64,000 nt of DNA from Takakia lepidozioides (lineage: Eukaryota; Plantae; Bryophyta), in the NCBI GenBank assembly GCA_030704615.1, contig CM060732.1, positions 32,798,001-32,862,000 of the forward strand, read 5' to 3'. Both the position numbers and the translations under genes were made by a program. Below are positions 31,155 through 64,000 of the stretch, one piece after another (position 1 is the stretch's first letter; each line of letters opens with the position of its first letter). A model generated the notes under the pieces. The model was not told the DNA's origin, searched no databases, and saw only the letters and a program-made list of their open reading frames with translations.

Positions 31155-31654
31155 AGGATGTGAGGTCATCGACAATTCATCAGAGACTTCCAATGGCGAG
31201 CAAGGCAAAAGCCCCTAACTTCAGACAGCACACAAAAGTGCAAATGTAAAGATTTTCTAACAAAAGCACAAAAGAGACAGGGACCCTTCATAATTTGTTG
31301 GTCATGCTAATTACCAGACCAGTAAAGGTTGTCAAACCATCTTCAGAAATCAAACAATGCAACAAGCATATCCCTCTCTTTACCTCTCTACCTTCATGAC
31401 AAGCAAAGCATAGCTCCAGATATCCTCAACAACCATAGCCTTTCAAGCATCATGTTTCCATGATGGAAAAGTTGTGAGCTCTTTGCAATCTGCAATGGAA
31501 ACTGGAGCAGTGTGAATGCTGGCACATGACAGATGCTTCACAAGTAAGCTGTCAATGTCTCTAGACTTCCTTGAGGCTTCCACAATCTTCTTCAACAAAC
31601 CCCTCAATACTGAAGTTCTTGCTTGTGGATTCCAGTAGTGCGAGAGAGAATGTG

Positions 31655-32250
31655 TCATTCATTTTGCAGGATACACTCCCATTTCTCTTCTCTTTTCTTT
31701 TCTCTTCTCTTCTCTTCCTCATTAATTTCTGTGATGGATGCACACCAAAGCACATTCCCAATTCTCTTCTTTTCTCCTCTTTTCTCTTCTCTTCTCTTCC
31801 TCAATTTCTGTGATGGATGCACACCTAAGCACATTCCCAATTCTCTTCTCTTCTCTTCCTTGCTCATTCATTTCTGTGATGGATGCGCACACCTAAGCAC
31901 ATTCCCAATTCTTTTCTTTTCTTTTCTCTTTCCTCTTCTCTCCTCTTCTCTTGCTCATTCATTTCTGTGATGGATGCACACCTAAGCACATTCCCAATTC
32001 TTTTCTTTTCTTTTCTCTTTCCTCTTCTCTCCTCTTCTCTTGCTCATTCATTTCTGTGATGGATGCACACCTAAGCACATTCCCAATTCTCTTCTTTTCT
32101 TTTCTCTTTTCTCTTCTCGTCTCTTCTCTTGCTCACTCATTTCTGTGATGGATGCACACTAAAGCACATTCCCAATTCTCTTCTTTTCTCTTGTCTTCTC
32201 TTCTCTTCCTCATCATGGCTGTGATGGATGTACACCTAAGCACATTCCAA
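31655..32250. repeat. Minisatellite: seven ~40-bp conserved units separated by variable (TTCTC)-type tracts
   Basis: ATTTCTGTGATGGATGCACACCTAAGCACATTCCCAATTC at ~31725, 31804, 31870, 31961, 32050, 32139 and degenerate ~32218. Confidence 0.9.
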
Positions 32251-32483
32251 GGTCTCTTGCTTATTCTTGGCTACTTTGAAGATTTGGGTGTACAGATGGC
32301 AGGAAGGCAGTGATAGAAGGAGTGTTATCTTACTTGTGTGGAGCCCACACACAGAAACCCAAAGAGCACACGGGCCACAAACGCAGTCTCTCCCTCGTCT
32401 TCTCTCTCTCTCCATCTCTCACTAGTCCACTGAGAGTCCCACCTCACTGCAACGCACTGAGAGCAGCGGGGCTAGCTCCAGCT

Positions 32484-35214
32484 ATGGCCGCAGCAACAGC
32501 GCTTTCTCGGGCCCAGCTCTTGTCGGCTGTAGCTTCCAGCTCGGGGAGCTCCTCCAAGCTCGGTCCCGTTAGTCCCAATGCCCGGTCTCTAGCTGCCTCC
32601 TCGCTCCATGGCTGCCTTGCGGGCCTTCGCTCTGGATCCGCTCAATTCAGGCGGCAGAGTGGGCCTGTCGTGAGGGCTGCGGTGAGTGTGGAACCTCCCG
32701 CTCCCAAGCAACAACAGAAACGAAGCCAGTACGACATTCAGACCTTCACAGGATGGCTGCTAAAACAAGAACAAGTGGGAGTGATAGATGCAGAATTGAC
32801 CATTGTCTTGTCCAGCATCGCACTTGCTTGCAAGCAGATTGCGTCTCTGGTGCAGAGAGCCGGAATCTCCAATATGACGGGCGTGCAGGGAGCTGTTAAT
32901 GTGCAGGGGGAGGATCAGAAGAAGCTGGATGTTATCTCTAACGAGGTGAATTCACATTCTCTCTTTCTTGTTGGGGATGTTGCCTCAGAGGAGCTAGTGA
33001 TGTCCTCTGCCATTTTTGGAGTAAGCTTGAAGGGAATTCTTTGGGTATCTTCGCTGATTTCTTTCTCCGCCATTGTAACGCTGCAACGCTTTTCTTAACA
33101 CTTGTTGCTGTCCATCTCTAGCTCTTTGGTTCCTCCACTTTATTCTCTGGCGGATTGCTGCGTTGTCTGTCTCTTCTGCTTCTGAACCAGAGTGCTTCAG
33201 CTGCCTCTAACAGTTGTAGGAACTATACACGTCTAACTACAAGTCGAATTTTGAACAAGCTGATGTCTTTGTCCGTCATTGAATTCCCTTCGGTCAACTC
33301 GCTGTTTGATCGATTTTCCATTGGTAAATCTTCTCCGGGAAACACCTCCCCATGAGCTTTGTTTGACCTCCTCGCCTGCCTACGTTGCTATTGACTTGCT
33401 TGCACGTTTTTGGTGCGGGACGCATTATTCCAGACATAAAAAGAGGTAAGGATGGTGGAATCTATCAGAGTACTCAATGGATTCTTGGTGGGAATTCAAA
33501 CCTTTTTATTTGCCTGTTGTTGTTTGTGCCCGTTGAGGGAAGTAGCCGTATTCCCTATCATGCTCCCTTCTTACAGTCCTGTGTACCTGGATGGAATTCT
33601 CGCCCGAGCAGGTTACAACCACTATGTCTTGATATATTGAAATGGGTGGTTGCGAGCAGGTTTTCTCTAGCTGCCTTCGTTCAAGTGGGCGGACAGGCAT
33701 CATTGCTTCCGAGGAGGAAGACACACCTGTCGCTGTAGAGGAGAGTTACTCAGGCAACTACATCGTGGTGTTTGATCCCTTGGACGGCTCGTCGAATATT
33801 GATGCTGCTGTGTCGACAGGATCCATCTTTGGTATCTACAGACCCAATGAGGAGTGCCTGGCAGACCTAGGCGACAACCCCACAGTATGAATGTTCTATC
33901 CTCTTGCTTCCTTGTCATCACCTTATCTCATATGAATTCATTACTTGCCATAGTCTGGGCCCATCTCTCTGCCTTTTTCGCAGTCTTCCTCTTTAGGCTC
34001 CACTACTGCAGAGCAATGAAGCTGAGAGATGTATTCCCTTCTGGCAGTCTCCATCATTCTTTGAGTACATACTCAACTACACTTCCCAGTGGTACTGTTG
34101 GGCACATTCTGCTCGATTAACTAGTTTCTAAGATGAAAGATTGGGCAGTTAAACTCAAAAAATATTTTATGGGCAGATCCCCAACTGTTCATTAGGAAAT
34201 TTCAATAACACAAGAATCTATTAGTCAGTAGACTTCGTTCTAGCAATTACTATAGTAAGTTCTTAGGTTTCTCTTTCATGCTACAGCCGCCATCTAACCT
34301 CTTTTGTTCCCTTTACTTCCTCATTTACTTCTCTTCCTCTCTCTTTTAACTGAGTATATCATCATTTTCGCAGATGGATGATGTGGCACAGAACTGTGTT
34401 GTGAATGTGTGTCAACCAGGCAACAACCTCTTGTCTGCTGGTTACTGCATGTACTCTAGTTCTGTTATATTGGTTCTTTCTGTTGGAAAGGGAGTTTTTG
34501 GCTTCACACTTGATCCTCTTTACGGAGAATTTGTTCTCACGCACGAAGAGGTCAAAATCCCCAAGAGTGGGAAGATCTACTCCTTCAACGAAGGTAACTA
34601 TGCGCTCTGGGACGACAAACTCAAAAAGTATGTTGATGATCTGAAGGACCCAGGACCCAGCAATAAACCATACACTGCTCGTTACATTGGTAGTCTCGTA
34701 GGAGACTTTCACAGGACGATGTTGTATGGAGGGATCTATGGCTACCCACCTGATAAGAAGAGCAAGACTGGGAAGTTGAGACTCTTGTATGAGTGTGCAC
34801 CCATGAGTTACTTGGCAGAACAGGCCGGTGGAAAGGGTTCCGATGGGTACAGAAGAATTTTGGATATTGAGCCTGAGCAGGTACACCACTGATTCCAAGC
34901 TGACCTGTAAGAATGAACCTATGATCTCAAATATGATGTATCTAGCAGTTTGTTCACAGCAGACAAAGAAGAGAGCCTGGAAGATAGGATCAGAAAGAAA
35001 TGGAGAGAGAGGGAGAGAGGATGCTCTTATTTGATCTTGTCACAGATAAATTCCATCCTCAGCACCTATGTGTGGCAGAATGTGTCCAGGTTCAGTTGAA
35101 GGTAGGACTTCTCACTGGATATGTGGTGTTGTGTTGTGGCAGATACATCAAAGAGTACCGCTATTTGTTGGTAGCACAGAAGAGGTGGAGAAGCTTGAGA
35201 GATACTTAGCTTAA
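32484..35214 (+). CDS. FBP: Chloroplast fructose-1,6-bisphosphatase (thioredoxin-regulated type)
   Basis: Exons 32484-32945, 33660-33884, 34374-34880, 35143-35214. Transit peptide, GEDQKKLDVISNE, DPLDGSSN, regulatory loop EECLAD...NCVVNVCQPG, RYIGSLVGD, GKLRLLYECAPM. Confidence 0.97.
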
Positions 35215-43250: not shown

Positions 43251-44929
43251 AGAGGTAGAGAACAATGATGATGTAGGTGTCTCTGAAGACAAAGGAGGCG
43301 TCTTTGTAGAACGCAAAGTAATTACCTGAAGCAAATGCAAAACTTAAACCCTCTTCCCCTTTCACTTCATCAGTGTGTGTAGAATCTGACAACAGTCCTG
43401 TAGGTGTAACATTATACCTGACTAGATCCACAGACATTGTGTTTGAGATGATTTTTAATATGCAACAACCATGCCCTCAGCTACTTCATTTCTATGGAAT
43501 TCCGAGTTTGCATCAATGAAGAAATGGTGTCAGAAATGGTGATGGTGTCATTTCTTGGACACCATCTACAATATCAGCAATGGTACTTCCCCAAGCCTGG
43601 AGGCAGAAGTTATACAATTGAGGAGATGCCCAAATGTGTACACGTCTCAATGCTTAGCTTGACTTATGAAATTACCATTGAGAGTCCAACCATGTTTGCT
43701 GTACAATGTACCTCAAGATGACGGTATGAAGTCCTCATACCTTCAGAACCAGAGAAATGGGTATACATCTTGAATTACAACACTGGCTCTGAAGTACTTG
43801 ACTCCAAGAAAACTAACCCCAACTGAGAATTCTATACGTGACCACAAACACAACTCGATCACAACAGTACAAAAACACCCCCACCTGGTGGACTGGATGG
43901 AATGGTACCACACACTTCAATTGATTTGAAGATCACCCCTAACTTGCTTCTACGAATCTGCATATATATTTGTTTCTATTGCAAATTACATGTACATTGC
44001 AATCAAAGACAGAAAAGACTAGTGTTGGGCTTGTGATGCCCCAAACTTTCCTCATCACAGATTCACCCGTTTCATCCAACACGGCGATACACATTCATCG
44101 TATATTTTTTTGGCGTATAAAGCCGTTAATCCGTTACAATGATGTTTAGGTTAGGGTTAGTTTAGGCTGGTGGCTTGATCTTGGCCCTTTGTTAGATCCA
44201 GGGCTGCAAGGCAGCACCGTGGGCTTGGGCCTATAATGCCTCACCACGCGGCGGGCCACTACGGTTAGGGCTTTTGTATAAAGACGGCGCCCTGACACAA
44301 GGTCAGGGCGGTGTACTCGGGTGTTGTTGTACATGTGATTTGAGTGTACAAGTTTTTGGATGAGAGCTGCTTAGTGTCTGAATCGTGTGTTTGATCCTCC
44401 TCTTGCGCGTTACTTGCTCTTTCCGCTCGCCCCTTTGTTGTGCAAGTTCGCTTCTTGAGAGGAAAGGAGTATATGCTTCAGGCTTGTTTTATGGTGGAGA
44501 GAAGCCGGGTATTCTAGGCGTGGTGGATCCTGCCCGCACTGTCAGGATCAGTTAGGTCATTCGCGGGATTTGCTCTACGTCATGCTGCCTAAGTGGTTCG
44601 CTAATGCGTGTTATCGATGGCGGCTCCTCGCTTTGCCCTCTTTTCTCCTGCTGTTGTGATTTTGTCGTCTCATGATGTGCGTTGGGTGTAATTGAAGGGG
44701 ATAGCTATAGTTCGTGATTTGTCTTGTGTAGCTCGCAGAGAGGGGGAGAGCATGTTCCTTCATATTAGCGTGGCACTTGCCATCGAGGCTGCTTCTAGTG
44801 TAGAGACTGACCCTGCTGCCACTTCTCATTCTGCTAGTGTTGTTGTTGTTGCTCCTCCCGTTGTTTCTAACCCTGTTGACACTCTTGCTGTTACTAACAC
44901 TACTGACGGCACGCGGCCTGGCATTGTTG

Positions 44930-45350
44930 TGTCATGGTTTTAGTCATGGTTATCTAGAATTACCTACTTCTAGTTAACTAGGACATTTTAGATATTTATA
45001 TTTATATTTTGTGTGTTGGGACTTCATTTGGTCTCACATGCCAAGTGAGGTGTCGAGCCTCACTTGAGACATGGAAATAGGTTTTCCCCTTGTGAGTGTT
45101 GAGGAGGCTCATCTTCTTGTAGTTGAGCCTCCATGAGCTTCTCTCACCTCCATAGCTCTAGGTATTGAGAGGGAGTGTGTTGAGGGCTTTGTAGGGTGGA
45201 TTCATTTAGCAAAGGTGCCCTTGGCTTGACTTAGTTTATATGATAGAGTGGATTTCACTTGGAAGGACTAGGGCTTGTTCTTCATGTGATTGCTTCATGC
45301 TTTGAGAGCTTTCATTGTCTTCTACTTCTCTCATTTCTCATCTCTTATCA
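44930..45350 (+). repeat. Terminal repeat A1
   Basis: TGTCATGG...CTCTTATCA, near-identical to 55379-55794 (a few substitutions and two small indels). Confidence 0.95.
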
Positions 45351-45351
45351 A

Positions 45352-45362
45352 TACAAGAAGAT
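45352..45362 (+). promoter_or_regulatory. Putative self-priming primer-binding site
   Basis: TACAAGAAGAT lies 1 nt after A1 and is the exact reverse complement of ATCTTCTTGTA (45111-45121) in A1. No TGG-type tRNA PBS is present. Confidence 0.65.
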
Positions 45363-46650
45363 CACCTTATGCTTGTGAGTGCGGAGTGTAAGGATTAATT
45401 TTGCACTTGTATTTTAAAGAGGTTGAGAGCTAGGAGAATTTAGCTCTTGTAGCACAAGGCTTGCAAGGGGTTGCAAGGAAATGTGCTCGAGTATTGCATG
45501 CACCAAGGAGTTGGAGAGCTTGAGAAGAAAGCTCTTGAGTCACAAGATTTTGCAAGGATTGTAAGGAGGAAGTCTTGTGTGTGTGGAAGCATGGATTCTA
45601 GGGTTTGAGAATCCTTTGTATGCATTATGGAGTCGATGGTGTGCGCCATGGCTTGTGGAGAGTGACTAAAGGCTTGTTAGTGCTCATTTCACTATCAAGC
45701 TAGGGTTAAGCAAGTTCAAAGTGTGGATGTTGTGGAAGAGAAGCCAATGAGCTATATATGCTTGGGCTTGAAGACAACAAGGGCAAGCACTTGGAGAGCA
45801 CTAAGAAACTCAAGAGGTTTTGAAAGGGAGCATGTGAAGAAATCTTCCAATCATGGTGGTGTGGAGCCAAGCTTAGGGTGCCATTGGAAGGGCTTGGAGA
45901 ACATGTGGTGGGAAATCCTTGAAGGGAAATCATCATTCAATGTATGCATAGCTTCACCCTAACTATGTAATGTGACAAGAGGGGGAGGCAATACTTGGCT
46001 ATTCATGCTCTTGGTAGTGCGAGCTTTGTGGTGGATAGTTGACCAAGCAAGTGGTGCATGTGTGGAGCATGCTCGCTTGAGTTTGTAAGTTCAAGTTTGA
46101 GAAGGGGAGCTCTTGAACTAGCAAGAGGTGAAGGCCTTTGAGATCCATTTGTGTGTGAAGTGGAGAGGTGTTGATTCATGTTATGATGAAGGAGAGCAAC
46201 ACATAGGCCAAGAGGTCATGAAACATGCATTCAAATGACCACGGGGAGCACATGGATGATGGATTGGTGCAAGACCCCAAATGAGGCATATGGCGTGAGA
46301 GTGGGATCCAAGGCGGATTGCTTGGGAGCATTATTGTAAGTGACAAGCATTGCTCCTACACATTGAGATAATTTGTGTTGATTTGGAGCAATTGTCAAGT
46401 GATGAGGAGACAAATGCATGATTATTCGGCAATGGAGATATGGTAGTTAAATCCCAAGGACTAGAAGGGGGATTGATTTGGTGGACAATGACTTGCAAGT
46501 TGAGTTGGACCACTCTTGGTTGCACATTGGGGTGGAAGAGAGCAAGAAGATGCCTCTTATGACCACCTAGAGACCATATTTTTGCTTGAGTAGAAGCATA
46601 GAAGTCAAGGACTTGCATTCTAGCTCTTACAAACCCTAGTAGTGTATGCT

Positions 46651-46952
46651 CAGACTATACCTCTGTTAGTATACCAAACAGGAGCTTGTCCCTTTGACTA
46701 TACCTCTGTTGAGGTATCACCATATGTGAACCCTAATGTGAGACTATACCTCTGTTAGTATACCAAACAGGAGCTTGTCCATTTTACTATACCTCTATTG
46801 AGGTATCACCATATGTAAACCCTAATCAGCTCAGACTATACCTCTGTTAGTATACCAAACAGAACCCTCATTTTCAGACTATACCTCTGTAAAGGTATCA
46901 TCAACATAAAGGACCCTAGCAACCTCAGACTATACCTCTGTTAAGGTATCAA
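46651..46952 (+). repeat. Array of seven ACTATACCTCT-core repeats in the element leader
   Basis: Cores at ~46654, 46697, 46743, 46786, 46835, 46878, 46929 (43-51 bp period, alternating spacers). ATACCTC-tgtt-GAGGTAT hairpin in alternate units. Confidence 0.9.
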
Positions 46953-46984
46953 CAGTGAAAGGACTTAGTGAAATTTAAGGGCCT

Positions 46985-47102
46985 TTGGAGGATTGTTTGG
47001 AAGATATTTGAGGGCCCTTGGAGGAGTATTTGGAGGATCTTTGGGGTCCTTGGAGGAGTGTTTGGAGGATCTTTGGGGTCCTTGGAGGACCCTTCAAGGA
47101 GC
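46985..47102 (+). repeat. Short TTGGAGGA-based tandem repeat
   Basis: TTGGAGGA recurs; TTGGAGGATCTTTGGGGTCCTTGGAGGA occurs twice. Confidence 0.8.
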
Positions 47103-47766
47103 TTTGGTGGACAATGTTGAAGAGCTCTTGAAGGATTGATTGAGGGATATTGAAGGATACTTGCCACGGCCATACAAGCGAGTGGATAGAGACAAGAGGG
47201 AGAGTGGTGGGATGAGAGCATTCTGGGGTTAGGAATTGCTTTAGTTTCTCTTCTCCATAGTCTTTCACCCTCTCTGTAGGCCAAAACCTTTCCGTAGGTG
47301 GAGGCAAGAGTCAGTCCGGGTTTGGGCTGGGGTGTCCTTGCAAGAGCGACACTGTGGAGTGTTTTTGGTGTGGGGGAGTTGCTGTCTTGATTTTCTTGTG
47401 TTTGGATCCCCTCCACACCTGCATGCTTGACTGTGCGCCATGTTAGCTTTGTGTGGGCGCATTTTTTCATAGGAGGTTGGTCCGGATTTGATCACCGGCC
47501 AATCCTAGAGTATGTTGTCGGTGGTGAGGCTGGAGTGATGACCAGCAAGACCACCAGTGTTTCTTCTATGGTGAGGCTGGGTTGATGACCAGCAGACCAT
47601 AGGAGTGCTTGCGGTGGATGCAGGTGCAAGTACAGGTCTACATTAGAAACCTATTATTCCTGCTTGAACCAGTAGCCGCAACAGGTTCTTTACCCGGTTA
47701 CCTTGTAGAAAGTGGGGATTAGAGACAGGTTGACAACCGGTTGGGTTGTGAGTTTTCATCACGGAG

Positions 47767-50660
47767 GTGCCACCAGCTGCTGAGGGGAGTGCCGGTACAA
47801 GCACCAGCGATACTAGTGGGTACACAAGACAAGGTGTGCGGTTTAGGCCACTTTCACCTTCAGTGTCTTCTGAGGAAGGTTCAGACTCGGAGTCAGGAGG
47901 ATTCTCGCCGAGGGTGCAAGTCATTTCCGTGCCATTGTTGTGGGACACGATGGAGGAGATGTATGGAGCTACCAAGGGGCCACGTAGGTACTCTGGAGCT
48001 GTGGGCACCATCGAGCTTGATGACTTTATACAAGAGTTTGACAGTTGGTGTGATTTGCAGCAAATGCGCAATCCACAACTGTTTACGCCCTTTATGGCGT
48101 GGAAGGGGCTATTCCAGCACCTTGAGGGGCCGCCCATGGATGATTACCATGAATTTAGGCGGGGACATGCGGTGGAGATTGAGGAGTGGCGAGAGTATTG
48201 GTCACCTAACTATGTCTCAATCACTAGAGGCACAAGGGCAGCGGTGACACCAGCAGCTACACAAACATCTCCAACTACAAGCACTAGTAGTGGAACAAGT
48301 AGTGCTGGCACTTCTGCAGGTGGTACCAGTTCAAAAGGTGCTACTACTCCTCCTGCCACAATTACAACACATGTGCCTAGATTCAACCCGGTGGTGGAGT
48401 TCTTCCAGGAGTTGCGGAGGAACTACCAAGGTGTACGGACAGAGAAGCTGCGAAGTTTGCAAGACTTCCAGCGCAAATCCAGTGAGAGCTTGCGAGAGGC
48501 CTACACTCGTATGAGGCGCTTGATAAGTGTGACCCAAGGGGTTACTGAAGCTCAGGCAGTCCAGTTCTGGTATGGAATTTTGGACAAGGAGCTCAAGAGA
48601 AGGGTGCGGGATGCAACCCTGTTACAAGCGCCCAACCCACATTAGCGGATGTGTTTCTGCTGGCTGAGCGGATTGAGCTCAACATGGTGGAGGAGCGAGT
48701 TGTTACCATTGGATTTGGCAAGGACATGCCTGCACGAGGTGCAGCTGCCAGCCAACAGGTACAAGGGACTGCCCAACAGCGTGGTCAGGGGGGCAAGGTT
48801 GCCCAACCCAAGTTCCATGGAGCTTACAGGGGACCTCAGGTGCAGAGGCCCGTGGCATCTTTTGCAGGCCAACAACAACTAGGGGTGATATGTTGGACAT
48901 GTGGAGGACCCCATGTCAAGAGAGATTGCCCAGAGAGTGGCAGAAGGCCGGCACAAGCACAGCCTGCACAGTTGCAGTGTGGGCATTGTGGCAAGTATGG
49001 GCATGGAGATGCCCAGTGTTATGACTTGCACCCTGAGTTGCGCCCAGGCCAGTTCCAGGGGAACAATGGTGGCCGGGGGCGAGGTGGACCAGCCCAGAGA
49101 GGACGAGGTACAGGCCAAGGGCAAGCTCAACATGGCCAAGGACGCGGAGGTCAGGGTGTTGACCAAGACATGGCCAACCGGCTTCAGCAGCTAGAGCAGA
49201 GGCTCGCTGCCATGGCTACAGCTCAGGTGGTACCGGCTCCCAGGCGGGATGGTCCACCTCCTGCTCCTAAGGGAGGAGATATGGGAGGCATGGGATTCAT
49301 GTGCGGAGCAGCACTACCACTAGTGCAGGTGGAGTCTGCTACAGCCGTGACTCGAGGAGCAGCACGAGTTCCTGAGCCACAAGGTGCAGAGGTGGAATTG
49401 GATCCACAGCGTGGGGAGGCAAGCCGTCAGGCGAGGCTTCCTCAGTCATTCATATTGGCGGAGACAGTGTCGACGCCATCCATGGCACCTAGTTCTCGCC
49501 CGACTGTTACCGAGGCGGAGGTTACTATGTCATTGGGGAGAGCTACACGTGCAGCACTGACACCTGCTACCAAGGCTAGTGCAGCCGGTGTGTTATTAGG
49601 GGCAGCCACCTCTGTGTGTCAAGCCCCACTGTTCTCAGCAACCATGATTGTGACGCCAGGGGTAAGACCAGCTGCAGTGTTCAGACTAGCAGCAACACTC
49701 TGCGAGAGTGGGGAGGTCACTTCATCTTCTGCGGAGTTACTGGAAGGTGTAGTGGCAGAGGGATCCTCGGATTTGAGGGTCAAGACTGCCACGGCTGCGC
49801 CATGGCAAGCTGCAGTTGCCAGGTTGACGGAGCTGCCAGCTAGGCCAGCCTTTGAGTGCGCCATGGTGACACCTGGAGTTGTCTTGTTAGACAACCAGGG
49901 AGGCATTTTCACTTTGAGTGGACCGGCAGGCAAGAAGTATCGGCCACTGCGGGTCTTGTTGGACTCAGGAGCTCAGCCACTGATGTTGGGCAGAGCTGCT
50001 ATTGCAGGTTTGGGCCTCATGGAGGCGGATATGGAGCCTTGTCCTTTCCAGATACAGACATCTCTGGGAGGATCAGAGCAGGCTCGGGGCATGACACGGC
50101 GTGAGTTGGTCATTGGACTACAACCAGATCATCATGTAGATGGCTCAGTGATGCGAGCCAAGGCCATTGTGACAGACGCGGTCTCTTACGATGTCCTTGT
50201 TGGTGGGGCAGTGTTATATCCCATGGGCTTCACCCTGGACTTTTGGGAGGAGTCAGCATCCTACAGGCCTGGATGGCAGTCAGGGGATGGTCGTCGTGCA
50301 CAGCTCCTTGTGACATTCATTGGGGGTATTGCGGCTGCCCAGCGAGGCAAGCTGCCAACACTAGCCGCCTTTACAACTGCAGTTAGTTGGCCTGGAGAGT
50401 TGCTGGAAGGCAATGCCCATGCAGAGGATGTGCCACCTCCAGCAGAGCAGGATGACATGCATGGTACGGCGGAGTTGCCTGCCATGGTTGCTCACACTCC
50501 ATTATGGGGTACGAGCAAGGATTTGCAGCAGGCTGCTGATGGACGGGTACAACAAGCCTGGGTAGAGGCCTTCGTACCGTCAGGAGAAGAGGAGAGTGCG
50601 GTGATTGCACTAGGACCACCTCAGTTGTCGCCATTGGACACCACACCTGTGTGGCAGTGC
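47767..50660 (+). CDS. Gag (two CCHC knuckles) and aspartic protease of the DNMT-Gypsy; frameshift ~48645
   Basis: Gag core, CWTCGGPHVKRDC, CGHCGKYGHGDAQC, RGG-rich linker, LLDSGAQ (~49956-49976), YDVLVGG. Confidence 0.9.
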
Positions 50661-50664
50661 CCGG

Positions 50665-51620
50665 ATGAAGGCATATGCCTTCTGGACTTGTTTGGCGGGA
50701 TCAGCACTGGATTGGCTGCAGTACTGCAGGCAGGTGTACGAGTTCGACGTTACCTGTATGTGGAGAGGGATGAGACTGCACGACGCGTCTCACTGCGCCA
50801 TGTTGCTCAGTTGGTACAGCAGTACCCTGATTTTTGCCAGTGTCTGCAGTTCGTGGATACCAACAAGCCTTGCCAGCAGACATTTGTTGTTGGGGGCGCA
50901 GGATTTGGAGCGGGTTGGCTCCATTGATCTGGTAGTGGCAGGTTGGCCCTGCCAAGGGCATTCATCAGCCGGGCATGGCAATGGATTGCGAGACTCGAGG
51001 ACGGGTCTGTTTTGGGAGATGGTGCGGATTTTGCGCCACTTGCAGCTTCATCAAGTTGTATCTCTAGCATACATCTTGGAGAATGTGCCACTGATGGGTG
51101 ATTCTCGGGCCAGGGTGATGGCCAGTGTGCATCAAGTCCGGTCGTGGCTTGGGTCAGCAGTGTTGCTGGATGCAGCTGCAGTGGGGTCATGGGCTCATCG
51201 TCCACGGCTATGGTGGACTAACTTGATGCCACCCGCACTGCTCAAGCGTGCATTTGATGGGGTGCAGCGGCCAGCACACCTCAGTGGATAGCATTTTGGA
51301 CACAGGAGGCAGTCTCAACGTGTGAGACACGATGACCGTTCGCCTTTGGCAGTGGTCAACAGGGTGGTCAACCACGAGCAGCATACCTACACTGCTCAGC
51401 TTCCCAGGATCCCATGCTTTTCGGGATGGTGGACCTGGCCTCTTGTGGGATAGCCAATTGCAACAATTAGTGGAGCCCAATGCTGACGAGCGCGAGCGGG
51501 CGATGGGTTTTACCACAGGTACCACGGCGGTGCCATCTCTTTCTGAGGCATCACGTCGTCAGGTGTTGGGGCAAGCAATGGATCTCAATTGCTTGACCTG
51601 GATTATCAGCTTGGCTATGG
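50665..51620 (+). CDS. C5-cytosine DNA methyltransferase domain (DNMT3-like) inside pol; frameshifted in this copy
   Basis: Motif I LLDLFGGISTG (50679), motif II YVERD, motif IV AGWPCQGHS (50938-50964), motif VI YILENV (51070-51087), motif VIII AHRPRLWWTNL (51193-51225), motif IX ERERAMGF (~51488), motif X RRQVLGQAM (51554-51580). Confidence 0.92.
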
Positions 51621-52039
51621 CTGAGCAGCGCAGAGTACGGAGTACACTTCCCTTCATGGTCTCCCTGCCTACCGAGACGGTACAGGCAGCGAGTTGGGGC
51701 GAGCAGGTGAGGACCACGAGGTGCAGGCCGCATCCATGGCAACGTGGGAGGTGCTCGAGGTTCAGAAGGAGTTGGCAGCCAAGGCGGCGGTGATGGATCA
51801 GGTTGGGGATTTTTCTCGGATTGAGAGAGGTCCTCAAGGATGGGATGATGGGCAGGATGAGACATTGTCACTGACAGAGGAGGCAGTGGTCACTGCTCAA
51901 GAGGTTGCAGCATAGCAACACGGGACGCGTCTTCTACCTCTAAGCTGCTGGACTCAAGGTTGCAGTCACGGAGGACAACTGGGAGCCTGATGTTGGACCT
52001 ATAGTCACCGGAGGAGAGAGACGACGTATACGGCGGTTC

Positions 52040-53400
52040 TTGAGGGCTTACAGGAACTGCTTTGCCTTCAGTTTGAAGGACTTAGGAGCACTGAAGGGTC
52101 AAGAGATTCGCATTGAATTGGCTACTGACACGCCAATCTTTCGGAGACCCTATAGATACAGTGACATGGAGAGGTCCTTGATTCAGATGAGAACTCAGGA
52201 CCTTTGGGAGGCTGGTTGGTGGAGCTATCTGGGGGAGAGTATGCTTCAGCCACAGTGATGCCAGCCAAGAAGGATGTCTTTGGCAATTGGACGGAGAGAG
52301 ACGTATGTGCGGTGATTACCGGCCTGTAAATCGTCAGACCAAGTCCGATAGGTATGCCATGCCAACACCAGAGGAGATCTTTGATGCCATTGGCATGCCA
52401 AGGTCTTTAGCACGTTGGATTTACGATCCGGATATCACCAGTTGCCGATCAAGGAGGCGGATAAGCAAAAGACGGCATTCTGGGGATCAATGAGCACGGA
52501 AGGATTAGGATTGCCTATACCAGTGGCGGTTCTTACCATTTGGGCTTAAGAACGCTCCGGCAGAGTTTCAGAGAGTCATGGACAGGATTCTAGCAGGGGG
52601 GAGTTTGCTCGGTGCTACATAGATGACATCATCATCTTTAGTGCTACGGTGGATGGTGGAAGGCATGAGAGACACCTTCAGGGGAGTTTGAGCGCTTGAG
52701 GGCGCACGGATTGAAGTTACATGGGGAAGTGCAAGTTTTCCACAACCAGATTGAGTATCTGGGTCACATGATATATCCTGGAGATTGGGGGTACAGCAGA
52801 CTAAGGTAGAGTCCATTGCACAGGTTCCACGCCCCACGGATGTGAGCCGAGTTCGAGCTTTCATGGGGTTAGCAAACTATTATAGACGGTTTGTTAAGGG
52901 ATTTAGTGCCATTGCAAAGGCTCTAACCAAGCTGACCAAGGTGGACCAGGAGTGGCAGTGGGAAGATGAGCAAGAACAAGCTTTTCAAGAGCTCAAGGCG
53001 AGGTTGACCTCGGCGCCCATCTTGAGACGACCTATCAGGGGGCGTCCTTTTCAGTGCATACAGATTGGAGCATGCTGGATGGGGCTTGGAGCGGTGCTCA
53101 CACAGGTGATGATGAGGAAGAGAGTTCGTAGTGGCTTATGCTAGCCGCCGAACAACGTTGCAGAGTCTAAGTATAGCTCATATGAGGAATGAATAGCTTA
53201 GCTGCAGTGTGGGCCGTGGCACACTTCAGGTGCTATCTATACGGCAATCTCTTCACCCTTGTCACGGATCACCAACCACTCAAGTGGTTGATGAGTCAGA
53301 CAAGCTTACGGGGAAGCTTGCACGGTGGCACTCATCCTTCAAAAGTATGACTTTCAGGTGGTGCATCGAACGGGTTTGGTCAATCGCAATGCAGATGGTT
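52040..53400 (+). CDS. Reverse transcriptase and RNase H of the DNMT-Gypsy (many frameshifts)
   Basis: RMCGDYRPVN, LDLRSGYHQL, LPFGLKNAP, YIDDIIIF (~52616), FMGLANYYRRFVKGFS, TDHQPL, GKLARW. Confidence 0.9.
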
Positions 53401-53689
53401 GAGTCGCAATCCATGCACAAGCCAGCAGGATGACACTGGAGCTCGGTGGCATGGTGAGACGGACGAGGAGATGGGGCCCAGATGGCATGGCATCTGCATT
53501 TTCGTGTATCTTGGCAGCGGAAGACCAGGTTGGACCTTGCAATAGGGATGACTGTAGATCAAGTGTCTGAGGACCCTGAGGCAGCAATGAGAAGGGGGCG
53601 CCAAAGATATTTCATGAGGATTCAGTTGTGTTGGACTACCCCGCACTGGAGACACTGCAGCCAGTGTGACTGCCAAGGAGAGGGATCGA

Positions 53690-55034
53690 TCCTACAACGA
53701 GCCAAGAGGTTCAAAGGGGGAGGGGACACACTGCTCCGAGTGTGGGAGGATGGTCGAGTGAGGATTGTGCCTCACCCAACACGTGGCATGCCCATGAGGA
53801 GTTGGGGCATTTTGGGGTGCGACGCACTCATAGTCTACTGCAGGGGCAGTATTGGTGGCGTGGTATGCACACAGAGGTGCAACAATTTGTGGCTAGGTGC
53901 ATGGTGTGTGACAGGGTGCGTGCTTCATTCAACGCCCCTACTCCACAATTGCACCCTCTTCCGATCATGGGATTGGGCTACAGGTGGAGTCTTGACTTTG
54001 CAGGGCCGTTGCCACTGACCATGTACCACAACAAGTACGTGTTGGTGATGGTGGAGCACTTCTCCAAGTGGATTGAATTGGTTCCATTGCCTGATAAGGC
54101 TAGTGAGGGAGCTGCGTATGCATTCTTGGATTGTGTGCTTAGCTGATTCGGTGCTCCAGCTGAGGTACTCACGGACCAAGGGAGAGAGTTCTTGGGGGAG
54201 TTTCAGGCTTTGTGTGACAAGGCCTTGATAGACCACCGCACCACTTCTCGGGATCATCCTGAGGCCGATGGCTTGGCAGAGAGAGTTGTTCAGACAGTAA
54301 AGAGGGGTTTGCGCAAGTATGGTTTGCAGAAGGGACACCTAGGAGATTGGGACCTTCAGTTACCCTGGTTAGCCATGGGCTACAGGTTCAGCAAGCAAGC
54401 ATCACTTGCCTCCTTCTCACCATACTTTCTTCTCTTTGGCCGAGAGCCGGATTTGCCTACATCCATTCGCAGAGAAGTTGCTACCGTTCTTAACCTTGAC
54501 GATCCAGACGTGTGGGCACATGCATGTGAGCAGCGTGCAGAGTTGTTCAAGAAAGTCATGCCCATGGCTTTCGAGAACCTTGCCATTGCACAAAATCGTG
54601 ATACGTTGAGGTATGCTACCATACGTGGTGGGGGCTATCATCCTGGGGTTCGGAGATTCAACCCTGGTGACTATGTTTATCTGCAGCAGACTGCTCCTAC
54701 GACCTTGGATGTGACTGCAGGACGTACTATTTTGAGGGTTCGAGAGGTTTTGCCCTCGGGAGTCATGATCTTGGAGGGTCGGGATGGCATGATTTGGAAG
54801 GACCATGTGCGTAATTGCGCGCCATGTCACCTTCCAAATATTGATGGAAGGGTTGACCCAAACCTGGCAGTGGTACCTGCAAGTTTGAGGTGCATGTTGT
54901 GTGGGTCTGCTAGAGGGGCAGCCACCATGCTGGTGTGTGATCAATGCTCTAGAGGTTGGCATATGAGATGCTTGACTCCACCTCTTGAGATGGTTCTTGA
55001 TGGGGATTGGTTATGTCCGCATTGCATTGGATAG
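53690..55034 (+). CDS. DDE integrase with C-terminal PHD finger
   Basis: HHCC (HEELGHFG...CMVC), SLDFAGP, LTDQG.EF, DGLAER. PHD CMLC...MLVCDQCSRGWHMRCLTPPL...GDWLCPHC (54890-55027). In-frame TGA at ~54144. Confidence 0.93.
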
Positions 55035-55291
55035 TGAGAGTGGATACAACCATGGAAGGCTAACAAGAAATGCAAGGCCAAGCTACTAGGAGACCAACAC
55101 ACGAGATCCTGACTCAAGTTCACAGATTGCAAGACGGCAAGTAATGATGGGGTTGCTCTTGTACCCGGCCTCTTGGTCTATAGAGTTTGAGTACAATAGG
55201 GACAGTGATAGAGGACTTAGTACGGCTGTGGCTATTACATCTTGTAGCTATCTGGAGTTAGAGGGACCTAACCACCAGCTAGGGGGGCGAT

Positions 55292-55376
55292 TGTGGTATA
55301 GCTTTCTAGGATTGTGTGCTTAGATTGTGTGGTGGACAGCGATGTATGTTGTGGCATGATGCTTAAGTGCACGACA
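55292..55376 (+). repeat. Terminal repeat B1
   Basis: TGTGGTATAG...GCACGACA, 85 bp, directly after the PPT; 2 mismatches to B2. Confidence 0.95.
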
Positions 55377-55378
55377 GT

Positions 55379-55794
55379 TGTTATGGTTTTAGTCATGGTT
55401 ATCTAGAATTACCTACTTCTTAACTATGACATTTTAGATATTTATATTTATATTTTGTGTGTTGGGACTTCATTTGGTCTCACATGCCAAGTGAGGTGTC
55501 GAGCCTCACTTGAGACATGGAGATAGGTTTTCCCCTTGTGAGTGTTGAGGAGGCTCATCTTCTTGTAGTTGAGCCTCCATGAGCTTCTCTCACCTCCATA
55601 GCTCTAGGTATTGAGAGGGAGTGTGTTGAGGGCTTTGTAGGGTGGATTCATTTAGCAAAGGTGCTCTTGGCTTGACTTAGTTTGTGATAGAGTGGATTTC
55701 ACTTGGAAGGACTAGGGCTTGTTCTTCATGTGATTGCTTCATGCTTTGAGAGCTTTCATTGTCTTCTACTTCTCTCATTTCTCATCTCTTATCA
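55379..55794 (+). repeat. Terminal repeat A2
   Basis: TGTTATGG...CTCTTATCA, copy of A1. Confidence 0.95.
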
Positions 55795-55795
55795 T

Positions 55796-55880
55796 TGTGG
55801 TATAGCTTTCTAGGATTGTGTGCTTAGATTGTGTGGTGGACAGCGATGTATGTTGTGGCACGATGCTTAGGTGCACGACA
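55796..55880 (+). repeat. Terminal repeat B2
   Basis: Copy of B1, followed by the TSD GTTG. Confidence 0.95.
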
Positions 55881-58800
55881 GTTGCCTTGCCAGCATCGCC
55901 TCTTCCTGAGCCTGCTGCTTGCGTTCCAGCCCTTGTTGTTTCATTGGGTTCTCCTGGTGGTAGTGATTATGATAATCTGGGGGAGGTAGAGGCGTGGTCG
56001 CCAAGGTTTGAGAGGTCTGACAGCTCTCTAGATAGTTGTGACCCGGACTACTACAACTTTGACAATTTTGTGGATCCAGGCCCTGAATATTTTGAAAGTA
56101 GGCAGCAAGCAGCAAAATTAGAAAGAGACATTGAATTGTTGCAGGAAATAGATGATCTGTTGTGTGAAGTATGTGACGAAGATCAGCTTTGGTTTGAGCG
56201 TGTAGAGAGAGTTGTTGTAGGTGATCTTGCTGCACTAACCAGTCATCACGAGGCCCTGTTCACACGACCTTTGCTTGAGCCTGGTGCGGTGATCTCCAGG
56301 GCCAGACAGCTTGCTAAGCGAGAATTTGAGCTACGCACTGAAGAGCGTCTACCGTCCAAGGCGACCAAGTCGCGTTTTCTAAACCATCGTGAATTAACCT
56401 GGTTGGAAGTTGGCTTGTATCTGCCTCTTTCTGGTGTTCGAAGTGCAGAGCTTCATCATGGCCTTGGCGTGGTAGGGAGAAGTTGGTTGTCGTTGATGTT
56501 ACAAGGCATAGGGGCTTTGATCTTTACGGTTTCAGCTCCGGCCTTGCGCCTTGGCACCTACCTATTCACAGTTAATTGATGGTCTGACGGATGGGGCCTT
56601 GATAGTACAGTCGTCTGATCTAGTGGTCTTGGGTGTGGGCACTGCCTTTGCTTCACAGTAGGCTCACCCGAGCGCGTTTGAGAGACTGAGTGATTGTTCA
56701 AACTCGACTGTGCTTTCGCGCACCTGGAGAGAGGGTGACACCACCCGCGTTGGCTTTTGGCTTAAAGGAGCTGATGGTTGGGAGTGGCTGGCATTGGGGA
56801 TCTACGAGTTAGAATCACACAAGGTGCTGAGGGTGGTGTATTGCTCCACTTGGGTTCCAGAAGACAGCTCGCCAAGTACTTGGCCCACGCTCCACATCCC
56901 TGCGGCTTGAAGGTTATGCCTCCAATCCAACCTTGTTTCTTGCATGCTAGGTGATTCTAGTACCACTTGGTTGAGATCTGGAAGACAGAGGTCCATGCAT
57001 AATTCAGGAAAACCGCTGGTCGAAAGTATAGTAGAGGTGAATGAGGAATCGGACAACCTGCAGGCAGGTAATTTCATGGTGAGTGATGATGAATTTTGAA
57101 TGTTGGGACAATGGGGGCAGTTGTGGAGTCCCCAACTGATATTCCATTAGTTGATGAGGTGTCTGGGATAGCCACCCTCGAGGGCCTTTCTGTCTATGAT
57201 CGGCGTGATGAGGACTTGGAGACTAGACGGACTGAGCCCATGCTGGCTCGGGAATTACACATTCTGCCCTCCCATCCTCCTCATGGGGATCGAAGGGTCT
57301 GGTTCGGATGTATGGGCTACTACGAGCAGTATGCTGGCCCAGGTTGCTAACTTGAGTCTTAGGATGCTGCCTGTTGTGAATTTCCCTAGTCCCACTCTCG
57401 GGGGAGGGAACTTGTTGCCCGTGAATTCGGGTATGAATGTGAGCAGTCTTCCTGTGTTGAACGTGCATGGTGTTGTTCAAGGTGGGGGTGTCATGATGCA
57501 AGGGCCCTCTAGTATGTCTGCTACTCTGCCTCCTGCCATAGCTGGTCAATCTGTGGGGGCTCTCCCTGCTACACGGGCTGGGGTGCCACCACATCTTGTC
57601 TCTAGCCAGTCCATAGATATGCATGCTAGCAATATCCCTCTTAGCAGTATCCGATCTGTGTCAACACAGCCGGTGGGAGTGGCATCCACTCTTCCCATGA
57701 GCGGCATGCCACAAACCCACTTGCAGTCTACTAACCCTGCTGCTCAGCCAAGTGTGGCAATACCTGCTCTTCCCATGGGCACGGTGGCGCCACGTCTGTC
57801 AGCCTCAACTGCTATAAGATCAGTTAGTAATAATAATGTGTGTGGTAATTCTGCATCTAATGTTGGATATGTGCATGGTAATGCTGCTCCCATAATTCCT
57901 TGTTGCCCTGCTCATGGATCTGTCCTCCCTGGTCATATCAACCATAGCCTACCTTGTCATCTAATCCACCAGCTGACCACTCAACCTTACCCAAAATATA
58001 CAATGGGAGAAGACTTTGATAGATATCTTCAGATGTTTGAGGTCATTGCTAGTGTGAATGGGGTTCCTGAGAATTTCAAGATGGCAATCTTTAGGATGAG
58101 TATGAAGGGACCAGCTCGGGACTTACTGCATGCAGCCGTGATGGATGATCCCAGCCTCAACTGGGCAACTCTGGTGGAATGGGCAAAGACCTTGTTCAAA
58201 CCTCCTAAGAGGCCTCTGGATTGCTTTACCAAGCTTTCGGCCAGGACTTACCAACCTGGGGAATCCTTGTGGAAATATTACATGGATCTTAAGTTTGCTG
58301 CTGTTGAAAACATCATAGACTCGGTAGAGAGGGATCGTATGGTTAAAAGGTATTTTCTCCTTGGGTTGCCTTCCACTATTCAGAATTGGGCTCAGCAGCG
58401 TCATTTTGTTGATGACGAGACTATGTTAGCAGAAATTAATGTTAAAATGGCAGACTTGGCTGACGTCAAATCAATGCACCATCGTGCCAAGTTTCAAGCT
58501 CCGGTGGGCTCAGAGCTTGGCATGTCTGCAACATCCTCACCCTATGCTCCTCCTAAGACATGTAAGGCTGATGATTTTACTCTTCAGGGGTTGGCTAATA
58601 CTGTGGGAAGTCTTAGTGAGTCTGTGGCCACTCAGTTTGCTGCCATGCAGACTCATCAACAAAGATGGCAGCCTCGCCACAACCAAGGAACAACAGGAGA
58701 TAACAATAGGGGTCGAACCCAGACTGGGCAAGCCTATGAGTGCAATCGTGCTGCCTATTACATTTGTGGGTCTTTTGAACACTAGACGAAGCATTGTCCA

Positions 58801-59569
58801 GACATAGCAGGGCTACCAGAGCTGATCAAGAACAAGAAAACAGCCAATGTCTCTTCCCCTCCTTTAAACTAGCACGATCTCTTGGGAAGGGGGCAAGAGG
58901 TCCATCATCTACCAACCCTGTTTCTTCTGTTCCGATTCAAACTGTTCTATCTACTAACATCAAAGGTTTGCATTGTCCTCTCAGTAGGCAGACTGTTGGC
59001 CAGCAGATCAGTCCCCTCATGGCGCAGTGCCATATCCATGAGCTCAGCTTTCCCTGTGTGGTTGATACTGGATGCACTATATCTGCCATACCTTTGAGTG
59101 TTGTGAGAGTTCTTGGTCTCAAACTATGCCCTGCCACAGGTATTGAGGTGTTTGTTGCAGATGGATCCAGGTATGAGCCCTTAGGACTAGTCACTATTCC
59201 CATCAGAATTCATAAAAAGGAGGTTGTGGTTACTTGTATAGTCACCATTGGAGATCAATTCCTTCTAGGCCTTCACTGGATGACCAGAGTTGGTGCCACC
59301 ATTAGCTAGCTGACTACTCCCTTCACTTTAACAATGGAGAAGGGCATGAAGTAGTGGTTCCCTTGAAAGCAATGAAGATCAAGGCTGGGTCTGCTACAGC
59401 CAATCTGTCCAGAGTCCAAGCCCTGGTAAAGGAGGTATAGCAGAACTCTCACTCCAATCTCAATTGGAATGATTTCTACAAGTTTCAGCCTGATCTTCAA
59501 CTCTTATATCAGTGGCATGTTCCTGGTGCTAAGGAAAGAACAAGGGTGCCCATAGCTATTCCAAAGAAT

Positions 59570-61230: not shown

Positions 61231-64000
61231 TGTCGTGCGCATACATATCGCTACACAACTACATCGCTGTCCAAAATCACACAACACATGTGCACACCAC
61301 ACACTAGTATACCACTACTCCACCACTAGTCCAGACACTAGTCCAACCACTAGGCTACAACTAGTCAGTCACTAGGCTGCCACTATGCTGCCCACTATGG
61401 CAGTCACTAGTCCACACAATGATAAAGAAGAAGAATACAAGCACGAGCTCACAAATTTGAAGCATAAACTCATGCATATATAACCTCATCACTCAAATAC
61501 AAGTCAAGCCAAGTGCACCCCACGCCATGGGGAATCCACACTACGGCGCCATAGCTAGGCGCGGTGAGGCTCAACTCGAGAAAGATGAGCCTCCCGCGCT
61601 TGCCGTGAAGATAACCACTCCAGGGCCTAAATCTGCTTTGACCCCTGGATTGACACTTGGGCCAATCCCAAATGTCAATATGTAAAAGCTAGCTATTTCC
61701 TAGCTAGTTTCACACTAGTGGTAAAATAACTCGACAGCTGTCGTGCGCATACATATCGCTACACAACTACATCGATGTCCAAAACCACACAACACATGTG
61801 CACACCACACACTAGTATACCACTAGTCCACCACTAGTCCAGCCACTAGTCCAACCACTAGGCTACAACTAGTCAGTCACTAGGCTGCCACTATGCTGCC
61901 CACTATGGCAGTCACTAGTCCACACAATCGCCCCCCTAGCTGGTGCTTAGGTCCCTCTAAGTCCAGGTAGCCACAAGATGTGATAGTGACCATAGCCTCA
62001 CTAAGTCCTCCACCACTATCCCTACTACACTCAAACTCGATAGATCAAGAGGCCGGGTGCAAGAGTTGCCCCATCGTTAGTCGCCGTCTTGCAACCTGTG
62101 AACTTGAGCTTGGGATCTCATGTATTGACTCCTATGAGCTTGGCCTCCCATGTCTTGTTAGCTGCCTCCAGTCATGTCCACTGCCACTATCCCAAGCAGT
62201 GTGGACACAACCAATCTCCGTCAGGAACCTTCTCAAGAGGTGGTGTCAAGCATCCCATATGCCAACCCCTTGAGCATCGATCACACACCAGCATGGTGGC
62301 TGCCTTTGGCAGACCCACAGAGCATGCACCTCAAACCTGCAGGTACCACTGCCAAGTTTAGGGTCAACTCTGCCATCGACATTGGGAAGGTGACATGGCG
62401 CACAATTACGCACATGGTCCTTCCAAGTCATGCCATCCCGACCCTCCAAGATCAGGACCCCTGAGGGCAACACCTCTCGAACCCTCAGAATAACACGCCC
62501 TGCAGTAACATCCAGAGTCATAAGAGCAGTCTGCTGCAAATAAACATAGTCACCAGGGCTAAACCTCCGAACCCCAGGACGATATCCTCTACCACGTATA
62601 GTGGCATACCTCAACGTATCACGGTGCTGTGCAATGGCAAGGTTCTCAAAAGCCATGGGCATGACTTTCTTGAACAACTCTGCACGCTGATCACATGCAC
62701 GTACCCACACGTCCGGATCGTCAAGGTTAAGGACTTGAGCAGTGTCCCTACGAATGGCTGCAGGCAAATCCGGCTCTCGGCCAAAGAGAAGGAAATATGG
62801 TGAGAAGGAGGCAAGTGATGCTTGTTTGCTGAACCTGTAGCCCATGACTAACCAAGGAACCTGAAGATCCCAATCTCCTAGGTGTCCCTTTTGCAAGCCA
62901 TACTTGCGCAAATCCCTCTTCACCGTCTGAACAACTCTCTCTGCTAAGCCATCAGCCTCAGGATGATCCCGAGAAGTGGTGCGGTGGTCTATCAAGGCTT
63001 TATCACACAAAGCCTGAAACTCCCCCAAGAACTCTCTCCCTTGGTCCGTGAGTACCTCAGCTGGAGCACCAAATCGGCTAAGCACACGATCCAAGAATGC
63101 ATACGCAGCCCCCTCACTAGCCTTGTCAGGCAATGGAACCAACTCAATCCACTTGGAGAAGTGCTCCACCATCACCAACACATATCTATGGTGGCGCATA
63201 GTCAGTGGCAACGGTCCTGCAAAGTCAAGACTCCACCTGTAGCCCAATCCCATGATTGGTAAAACATGCAACTGTGGTGTAGGGGTGTTGAATGAAGCAC
63301 ACACCCTGTCACACACCATGCACCTAGCCACGAACTGTTGCACCTCTGTATGCATACCACGCCACCAATACTGCCCTTGCAATAAACTGTGAGTGCGTCG
63401 CACTCCAAAATGCCCCAACTCCTCATGGGCATGCCGCACTAACCGTGCACGCTGTGTGGGGTGAGGCACAATCCTCACCCGACCATCCTCCCACACTCGA
63501 AGTAGGTGTATCCCCTCCCACTTGAACCTCTTGGCTCGTTGCAAGATCCGATCCCTCTCCCTGGCAGTCACAGTGGCTGTCGTGTCTCCCGTGCGGAGGT
63601 AGTCCAACACAGCCGAATCCTCATGTATATCTCTGGCACCACCTGGCTCATCACTAGCCTCAGGGTCCTCAGACATTCCATCTACAGTCATCCCTGTTGT
63701 AGGTCCAACCTGACCTCCCGATGCCAAGATACACAAAAATGCAGATGCGTGCCATCCCGACACCATCTCCTCGTCCGTCTCACCATGCCACCGAGCTCCA
63801 GTGTCATCCTGCTGGCTCATGCATGGATTGCACTCAATCCATCCGCATCCCGATTGACCAAACCCGGTCGATGCACAACCTGAAAGTCATACTCCTGGAG
63901 TATGAGTGCCCACCGTGCAAGCTTCTCCGTAAGCTTGTCTGACAACCACTTGAGTGGTTGGTGATCCGTGACAAAGGTGAAAAGATTGCCGTATAGATAG
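61231..64000 (-). mobile_element. Second, diverged member of the DNMT-Gypsy family (3' part: RNase H end, integrase, PHD, PPT, B1-A2-B2); continues beyond the window
   Basis: ORF 63820-62246 is highly similar to 53400-54900. PHD ~62335-62200 (frameshifted). PPT at 61941-61927. B1 61926-61739 and B2 61418-61231 (188 bp each); A2 61736-61420. Confidence 0.93.

Follow-up and report, generated by a model that had tools for sequence, protein, structure and literature searches.

The closest described system, KnitGypsy-Dnmt3 of the alga Klebsormidium nitens, combines Gypsy domains with DIRS-like repeats (de Mendoza et al. 2018, PMC5890265); the main text of that paper, figures aside, makes no mention of priming, a primer-binding site (PBS), circular forms, a target site or a PHD finger. 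Self-priming is established for Tf1/sushi and has been predicted for plant Tcn1 and TAR (PMC6317226), and a palindrome at the circle junction is known to be cleaved by the integrase of HIV-1 (PMC1905944, PMC4372172). At the level of titles and abstract openings, the literature searched yielded nothing on the priming or integration of this family, a question on which REM1 (PMC1291216) and a thesis (Craig 2021) may bear.

The window analysed here, a stretch of 64,000 nt from the Takakia lepidozioides assembly, carries two elements of this kind, which belong to two families (Table 1). Element 1 (44930 to 55880) is a decayed Ty3/gypsy retrotransposon with several frameshifts plus a stop, and encodes in order gag, protease, C5 cytosine methyltransferase, reverse transcriptase (RT), RNase H, DDE integrase and a PHD finger. 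The nearest solved structure is Ty3-G Gag-Pol. Its repeats are arranged as A1…PPT-B1-A2-B2, PPT being the polypurine tract. Element 2 lies on the minus strand, has the same repeat order and continues beyond the window. We put a probability of roughly 0.65 on the reading that the element is a Gypsy of the KnitGypsy-Dnmt3 type with a PBS complementary to 11-14 bases of its own repeat A, that these bases likely serve for priming as in Tf1, and that the DNA ends are then likely joined and integrase cuts at an internal palindrome.

Both elements are held by a host Gypsy with PNMA-like gag, dUTPase, RT and RNase H, identified in the flanks at 44692-44929 and 55881-61230. Element 1 splits a reading frame of this host that is in register on either side of the target-site duplication, and element 2 is inserted in the host RNase H region. 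Tandem repeats of ~90 nt were present at 46638-46952, within the 2.4-kb leader of element 1, and further tandem repeats of 80-90 nt were found at 31651-33098 beside a fructose-1,6-bisphosphatase exon.

Table 1. Features of the two retrotransposons in the window (positions are those of the window)
Feature	Position	Strand	Remarks
Element 1, target-site duplication GTTG	44926..44929 (left), 55881..55884 (right)		same 4 nt
Element 1, repeat A1	44930..45350	+	421 nt; TGTC att half at start; 5 mismatches and 5 gap columns against A2
Element 1, hairpin	45103..45132	+	9-bp stem, 12-nt loop
Element 1, predicted self-primer	45111..45123	+	12-13 nt; complement of the PBS; likely RNA 5' end (putative position)
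Element 1, predicted PBS	45351..45362	+	45351 deviates from the family here
Element 1, gag, first part	47752..48645	+	Pfam Retrotrans_gag E 9e-4, under the curated cut-off
Element 1, gag zinc knuckle, aspartic protease, start of C5 methyltransferase	48549..50927	+	weak Pfam protease match; translation; motif at 50682
Element 1, C5 cytosine methyltransferase, second part	50614..51291	+	other frame (frameshift); Pfam DNA_methylase E 1.2e-12; PCQ at 50941, ENV at 51079
Element 1, RT and RNase H	51944..53433	+	several frames, broken; RT_RNaseH_2 E 9e-11; tblastn to intact relatives
Element 1, DDE integrase (H2C2, rve)	53670..55034	+	one in-frame stop; PHD finger at the end, ~54891-55025; Pfam
Element 1, polypurine tract	55281..55290	+	directly before B1; same G-run in element 2 and relatives
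Element 1, repeat B1	55291..55376	+	GACA att half at end; 2 mismatches in 86 against B2
Element 1, internal B|A palindrome	55373..55382	.	predicted integrase att, slightly decayed; GACA-NN-TGTC at the B|A joint of relatives
Element 1, repeat A2	55379..55794	+	second copy of the hairpin at 55549-55578
Element 1, repeat B2	55795..55880	+	A2|B2 joint is a predicted end-joining scar
Element 2, repeat B2	61231..61419	-	
Element 2, repeat A2	61420..61736	-	hairpin at 61566-61593, primer stretch at 61575-61586; family PBS from loose ends
Element 2, perfect palindrome GACAGCTGTC	61733..61742	.	predicted att; mixed loose ends at 61736 mark the terminus
Element 2, repeat B1 and polypurine tract	61739-61927 and 61928-61937	-	
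Element 2, integrase ORF	62246..63886	-	Pfam rve E 1e-13, H2C2

The original prediction held that the PBS of element 1 is a perfect 11-nt complement of a segment of repeat A1, and in the window this is exact: positions 45352-45362 (TACAAGAAGAT) are the reverse complement of 45111-45121, the match starting 1 nt past the end of A1 (…TATCA, 45350). A match of at least 11 to the first 14 nt after A1 was obtained in 81 of 20,000 dinucleotide shuffles of A1, and as an empirical control 49 of 63,400 window positions matched at least 11 against the preceding 421 nt. With a chance expectation of 0.08-0.4 %, the match is confirmed as real. The base between A1 and the match, 45351, is A in the window copy only; it is C in ~99.6 % of the contig depth of sequencing run X1 and in all contig depth of runs X5, X7 and X9, so that in other copies of this family (family 1) the match extends to 12-13 nt and covers a whole hairpin loop. 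Variants inside the loop or the PBS of family 1 were absent among 40 of the 61 run-contig rows covering 44900-45420. A search of 44900-45700 against Rfam (E up to 1) gave no match, and hence no known ribozyme or tRNA-like fold, and an ARAGORN scan of the whole window gave no tRNA. In several families the PBS region can fold into a small hairpin of its own (window 45351-45380; also L012 and L060), possibly a switch between hidden and pairing states.

The hairpin in A1 comprises a 9-bp stem (45103-45111 / 45124-45132) and a 12-nt loop (45112-45123), with a folding energy of -25.8 kcal/mol for a surrounding segment of 65 nt (z -5.0 relative to base-shuffled sequence). Ten bases of the 11-mer lie in this loop, where all of them had been placed, but the first (45111) is the last base of the 5' stem arm. 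Between the A repeats of elements 1 and 2 the hairpin is the sole common stretch (29 nt, 86 %), the rest being unalignable. The second hairpin that had been noted at 61566-61593 is indeed present, but it sits in a different family and is not a second copy of the same one. The position of the primer stretch relative to the hairpin also differs among families: it is the loop in both window families, the loop plus the 3' arm in L032/L039 and L082 and the 3' arm in L060/L046, while L052/L059 have no real hairpin. A general mechanism in which the PBS pairs with the loop of an intact hairpin is consequently not supported, and loop-PBS pairing is unlikely to be the rule. When RNA was folded from the start of the match, the mean pairing probability between primer and PBS was 0.89-0.98 in 10 of 10 loci folded. 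With 20 or 60 nt more upstream, the hairpin-less family kept this pairing, whereas it was weaker or absent in several others; in the window copy the primer helix gives way to the hairpin once the 5' arm of the latter is included, an outcome that is partly by construction since the folding model is nested and pseudoknots are impossible in it.

A covariation test had been proposed in which the PBS of the second family would follow the change in its own hairpin loop. Run contigs were mapped to 61400-61760, drawn from four runs of two samples and two studies (three of the runs from one sample), and in all four runs the loose contig ends at the end of repeat A of element 2 (61420) gave C-TCGAGAAAGAT, written on the element strand, as predicted. 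The PBSs of families 1 and 2 differ at four of 11 positions, every one of which is compensated on the primer side.

For the wider comparison we used 80 metagenome loci (the best 80 of 537 confirmed relatives) and 11 genome-collection loci, together with an alignment of 43 integrase-PHD proteins; L087-L091, as distant matches, were left out. Beyond the two window families, three families were recognized by BLAST of A and B and carry our own labels, and L081/L005 make up a sixth. Both A1 and a PBS were available for 17 loci, namely 16 fetched loci and the window element, and were scored as match length minus twice the number of mismatches, with at most one mismatch. In this set, which includes the best 80 of 537 metagenome relatives, the PBS scored at least 11 against its own A in 11 of 17 loci, and the six with lower scores have decayed or suffered deletions there. 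Cross-family pairs of PBS and A scored 9 at most, none of 190 reaching 10, and the PBSs of the further families are unrelated to the window PBS.

Compensated changes were also observed inside families, with two such positions between L046 and L012/L060. Two more separate L081 and L005 in the sixth family, whose matches are 13 and 16 nt long; the contigs of both loci are read as collapsed assemblies, in which the PBS stands 359-362 nt into A, where the A of the relative L082 ends. The two ends of the L081 contig (1-127 and 9159-9285) are identical, with one B-A unit followed by the PBS, as would be seen if a young family had collapsed in assembly or if the contig were a one-LTR circle. Two further loci stand apart from this comparison: L074 has a PBS variant and a primer stretch of its own that is too decayed to compare, and L083, where a 12-nt match 95 nt into A pairs with a site ~445 nt in, was left uncounted, having no independent repeat end.

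In sum, the PBS is complementary to the element's own repeat A in each of six families, the two sites change together from family to family, and none of the PBSs in 18 loci (0 of 18) has a TGG-type start. Plus-strand synthesis carries the primer sequence over into the PBS at every cycle, and part of the covariation may come from such copying; in either case it speaks for primer use. Stems between LTR and leader occur commonly in retroelements, and the pairing could on that ground be a structural leader stem with a role in packaging, dimerisation or translation control, a tRNA fragment or other RNA serving as primer. We regard this as highly improbable, given that the match begins 0-2 nt past the end of A in every family, that the natural primer/PBS pairs include nine different PBS sequences without a TGG start, and that the commonest A|B joint of the third moss-type family (5 of 14) retains exactly the two bases that would be left over by a 12-nt primer. 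The tRNA-independent self-priming of the original prediction is thus upheld by the covariation and the PBS starts; we infer it from sequence comparison, and in some form it is very likely.

The first base of the match lies 150-183 nt into A and is mostly an A preceded by a pyrimidine, a Y|A boundary that is sharp in most families. The primer is probably the 5' end of the RNA. Transcription would start at the primer stretch or a few bases before it, the RNA would fold back on the PBS and RNase H would free the 3' end of the primer. The hairpin would then be complete only in the 3' copy of the repeat (A2), where it would mask the second primer sequence, and would be an accessory, missing as it is from one family. 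In some subfamilies the complement reaches 5' of the proposed start, by 9 nt in L012 and L060 and by 3 nt in L005, and in family 2 it reaches 4 nt further 5' in two of four runs, so that the RNA start may lie a few bases earlier or vary.

These upstream extensions would also suit self-priming from an internal site, in which transcription begins upstream, the loop or the opened stem of a leader hairpin binds the PBS, and only then is the 3' end released by a cut; this is the loop-PBS course of the original prediction. The 12-nt loop that is exactly the complement in both window families is in keeping with such a course, as is the only TATA-like run of A1, near 44993-45010 and ~100 nt upstream of the primer. 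Nevertheless, priming from an internal site seems distinctly unlikely to us. In three other families the primer lies base-paired within the stem, and one family has no hairpin; the sharp Y|A boundary of most families also speaks for a start at that point; in the window copy the hairpin displaces the primer helix when the 5' arm is present, albeit partly by construction of the model; and a helix of 12-13 bp through a closed 12-nt loop is sterically unlikely on general grounds.

Since the PPT adjoins B and the PBS adjoins A, reverse transcription of the ordinary LTR type would give a linear DNA with B+A as its LTR. The ends defined in this way have no conserved TG…CA, for the first bases of B are TTG, GTT, ATA or CTT and the last of A are CA, TG or TC, depending on the family. 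By contrast, the sequence at the B|A joint is GACA-NN-TGTC throughout the families (31 loci listed, exact or with decay changes), most commonly with GC as the spacer (GACA-GC-TGTC) and otherwise with AC, GT, AT or AA, and the palindrome is also present in L083 and L084. Inserted copies begin with TGTC and finish with GACA, and the run contigs show mixed flanks there, for family 1 at 44930. Among the 13 elements with both ends, nine have an exact 4-bp target duplication and L059 has three of the four bases, whilst the duplication is missing in L052, L053 and L072 (3 of 13). A duplication of 5 bp, checked by eye, was rejected as a misfit to the nine matching elements. The true ends of these elements are the halves of the conserved internal palindrome, flanked by 4-bp duplications, and not the ends defined by PBS and PPT, a point absent from the original prediction.

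Integration via the internal palindrome after end joining is the likely route on this sequence evidence. The two cDNA ends would be joined, leaving a variable A|B joint, and integrase would open the PBS-side palindrome to give A…B-A-B copies, with one-LTR circles giving A…B copies. The A|B joint varies in a manner that looks like an end-joining scar. In the third moss-type family, with repeats of one insertion (judged by flank) counted once, there are at least seven types of joint in 14 distinct insertions, blunt joints, microhomology and extra PBS-side bases included: five have two extra PBS-side bases, three have a 2-nt overlap and the rest show deletions or additional bases. Of eight insertions of another family, two have filler DNA or retained PPT bases at the joint, and two of six in a further family have a one-base variant. 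The sister copies L045 and L052 also differ in their joint, in a weak tree with two of 12 branches well supported.

In tyrosine-recombinase elements with split repeats, an RNA-splinted or RNA-templated A|B joint has been proposed. The A…B-A-B arrangement could similarly be copied from RNA in the present elements, with a transcript reaching into B2 that splints or templates A|B, or RT could jump from the right to the left end; self-priming would hold and host end joining would play no part. The joint is nearly uniform in both window families and, with G/A decay allowed, in six of eight distinct insertions of one moss-type family, which favours copying, and inheritance of a joint would also give this uniformity. 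The mirror arrangement bears on the same question. A two-LTR circle has two equal palindromes and A-B-A…B copies are accordingly expected of it, yet none of 17 A1 repeats is preceded by B (two of these have <60 nt upstream, yet with duplications), a count that goes against the joining model and for which a one-way jump would account. Possibly the PBS-side palindrome is the first to become double-stranded and so takes the integrase, or RT makes a one-way jump. Copying without end joining is countered by the seven or more joint types in 14 insertions, the difference between L045 and L052, the filler DNA in L014, the lack of a tyrosine recombinase match in the ORFs searched and the presence of 4-bp duplications, and we think it rather unlikely. 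End joining followed by cleavage at the palindrome remains our preferred reading.

At ~18 of 50 distinct 3' ends B stands alone, and the duplication is intact in three A…B copies (L002, L003 and L036). Such A…B copies could have arisen from one-LTR circles, by B-B recombination or through collapse of the assembly. Taken to its full extent, the reading would describe a green-lineage clade of LTR elements, from Chlamydomonas to land plants, in which the ends made by RT are uncoupled from the ends used by integrase, the elements self-prime and integrate only via the internal palindrome, joined or circular DNA is the obligatory substrate and the copies keep the scar; we consider the chances of this wider statement to be even.

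Relatives of the integrase-PHD part were found in Calypogeia (80 %), Marchantia, Sphagnum and Klebsormidium, and a search of IMG/VR returned no relatives. This part is 52-54 % identical to two K. nitens proteins, which may belong to the published KnitGypsy-Dnmt3 copies. The methyltransferase had tblastn matches in 35 of 86 loci, again in a set that includes the best 80 of 537 metagenome relatives. Among the high-GC integrase-PHD relatives, L085 (2-6457) encodes a 2152-aa polyprotein without a methyltransferase match, and L083 (4611-4620) and L084 (2785-2794) carry the palindrome extended to at least 16 bp, so that the layout may be older than the methyltransferase. The eukaryotic retrotransposon contigs L081-L086 are filed in genome bins titled cyanobacterium, Mollicutes, Halorubrum and Halanaerobiaceae, which is likely bin contamination. 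Two intact relatives share a single in-frame stop at the same place (L005, 5083-5085; L081, 3489-3491), which parts gag-protease-methyltransferase from RT-RNase H-integrase-PHD. Read-through of this stop is possible, in which case the methyltransferase would be as abundant as Gag. In a Chlamydomonas repeat library the palindrome stands behind a G-run in nine of 11 motif matches listed, and the entry Gypsy-14a_cRei starts with TGTC, ends with GACA and has the whole layout (PMC9940879 supplement). Gypsy-7a_cRei, an active, PHD-bearing element of Chlamydomonas, was set aside as a model, since the library lists it with plain LTRs and an internal part that starts with TGG.

Taken alone, self-priming here would add a third plant lineage to a known mechanism, supported by natural compensatory changes in nine primer/PBS pairs. 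The circles of retroviruses and LTR elements mostly lead nowhere, and linear DNA is what their integrase uses, at its ends. The att site of the present elements has apparently moved inside the repeat, and such a move would account for the DIRS-like layout, for which the 2018 report gave no mechanism. If true, it would make Chlamydomonas, Marchantia or moss natural settings in which to ask whether circles can be precursors of integration. In practical terms, software that searches for LTRs will put the ends and the PBS of such elements in the wrong place.

The elements share with the chromoviruses Tf1/Tf2, Tj1, sushi and Tcn1 a PBS complementary to their own LTR and not to a tRNA. Unlike Tf1, sushi and Tcn1, they have a PHD finger in place of a chromodomain (no chromodomain match in the window element and four intact relatives, all with PHD present), plus a methyltransferase; their repeats are split as A…B-A-B and do not form one LTR pair, and their integration ends are not set by PBS and PPT. 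The split direct repeats A…B-A-B are a likeness to Ngaro, PAT, TOC1 and SymbioDIRS-Dnmt3. Tyrosine-recombinase elements with such repeats have a probable circular intermediate that is opened at the B|A joint, and DIRS, Ngaro and PAT elements are not known to have a PPT or a target-site duplication. The present elements differ from DIRS, Ngaro and PAT in having a DDE integrase, a PBS, a PPT and 4-bp duplications and no recombinase, with no tyrosine recombinase match in 23 window ORFs and six ORFs of intact relatives, where rve was present. KnitGypsy-Dnmt3 has a Gypsy polyprotein with a C5 methyltransferase and A…B-A-B repeats, both of which recur here, whereas self-priming, a palindromic att, the 4-bp duplication and a spread through land plants and Chlamydomonas are not described in the main text of that report. 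The predicted cut resembles that in 2-LTR circles of HIV-1 and foamy virus, where two att ends lie abutted and integrase cleaves the internal palindrome that they make (PMC1905944, PMC4372172; see also PMC1180852). The palindrome of those viruses consists of the joined ends and serves a side path, whereas here it is an inbuilt part of the repeat, separate from the joined ends, and apparently the sole att.
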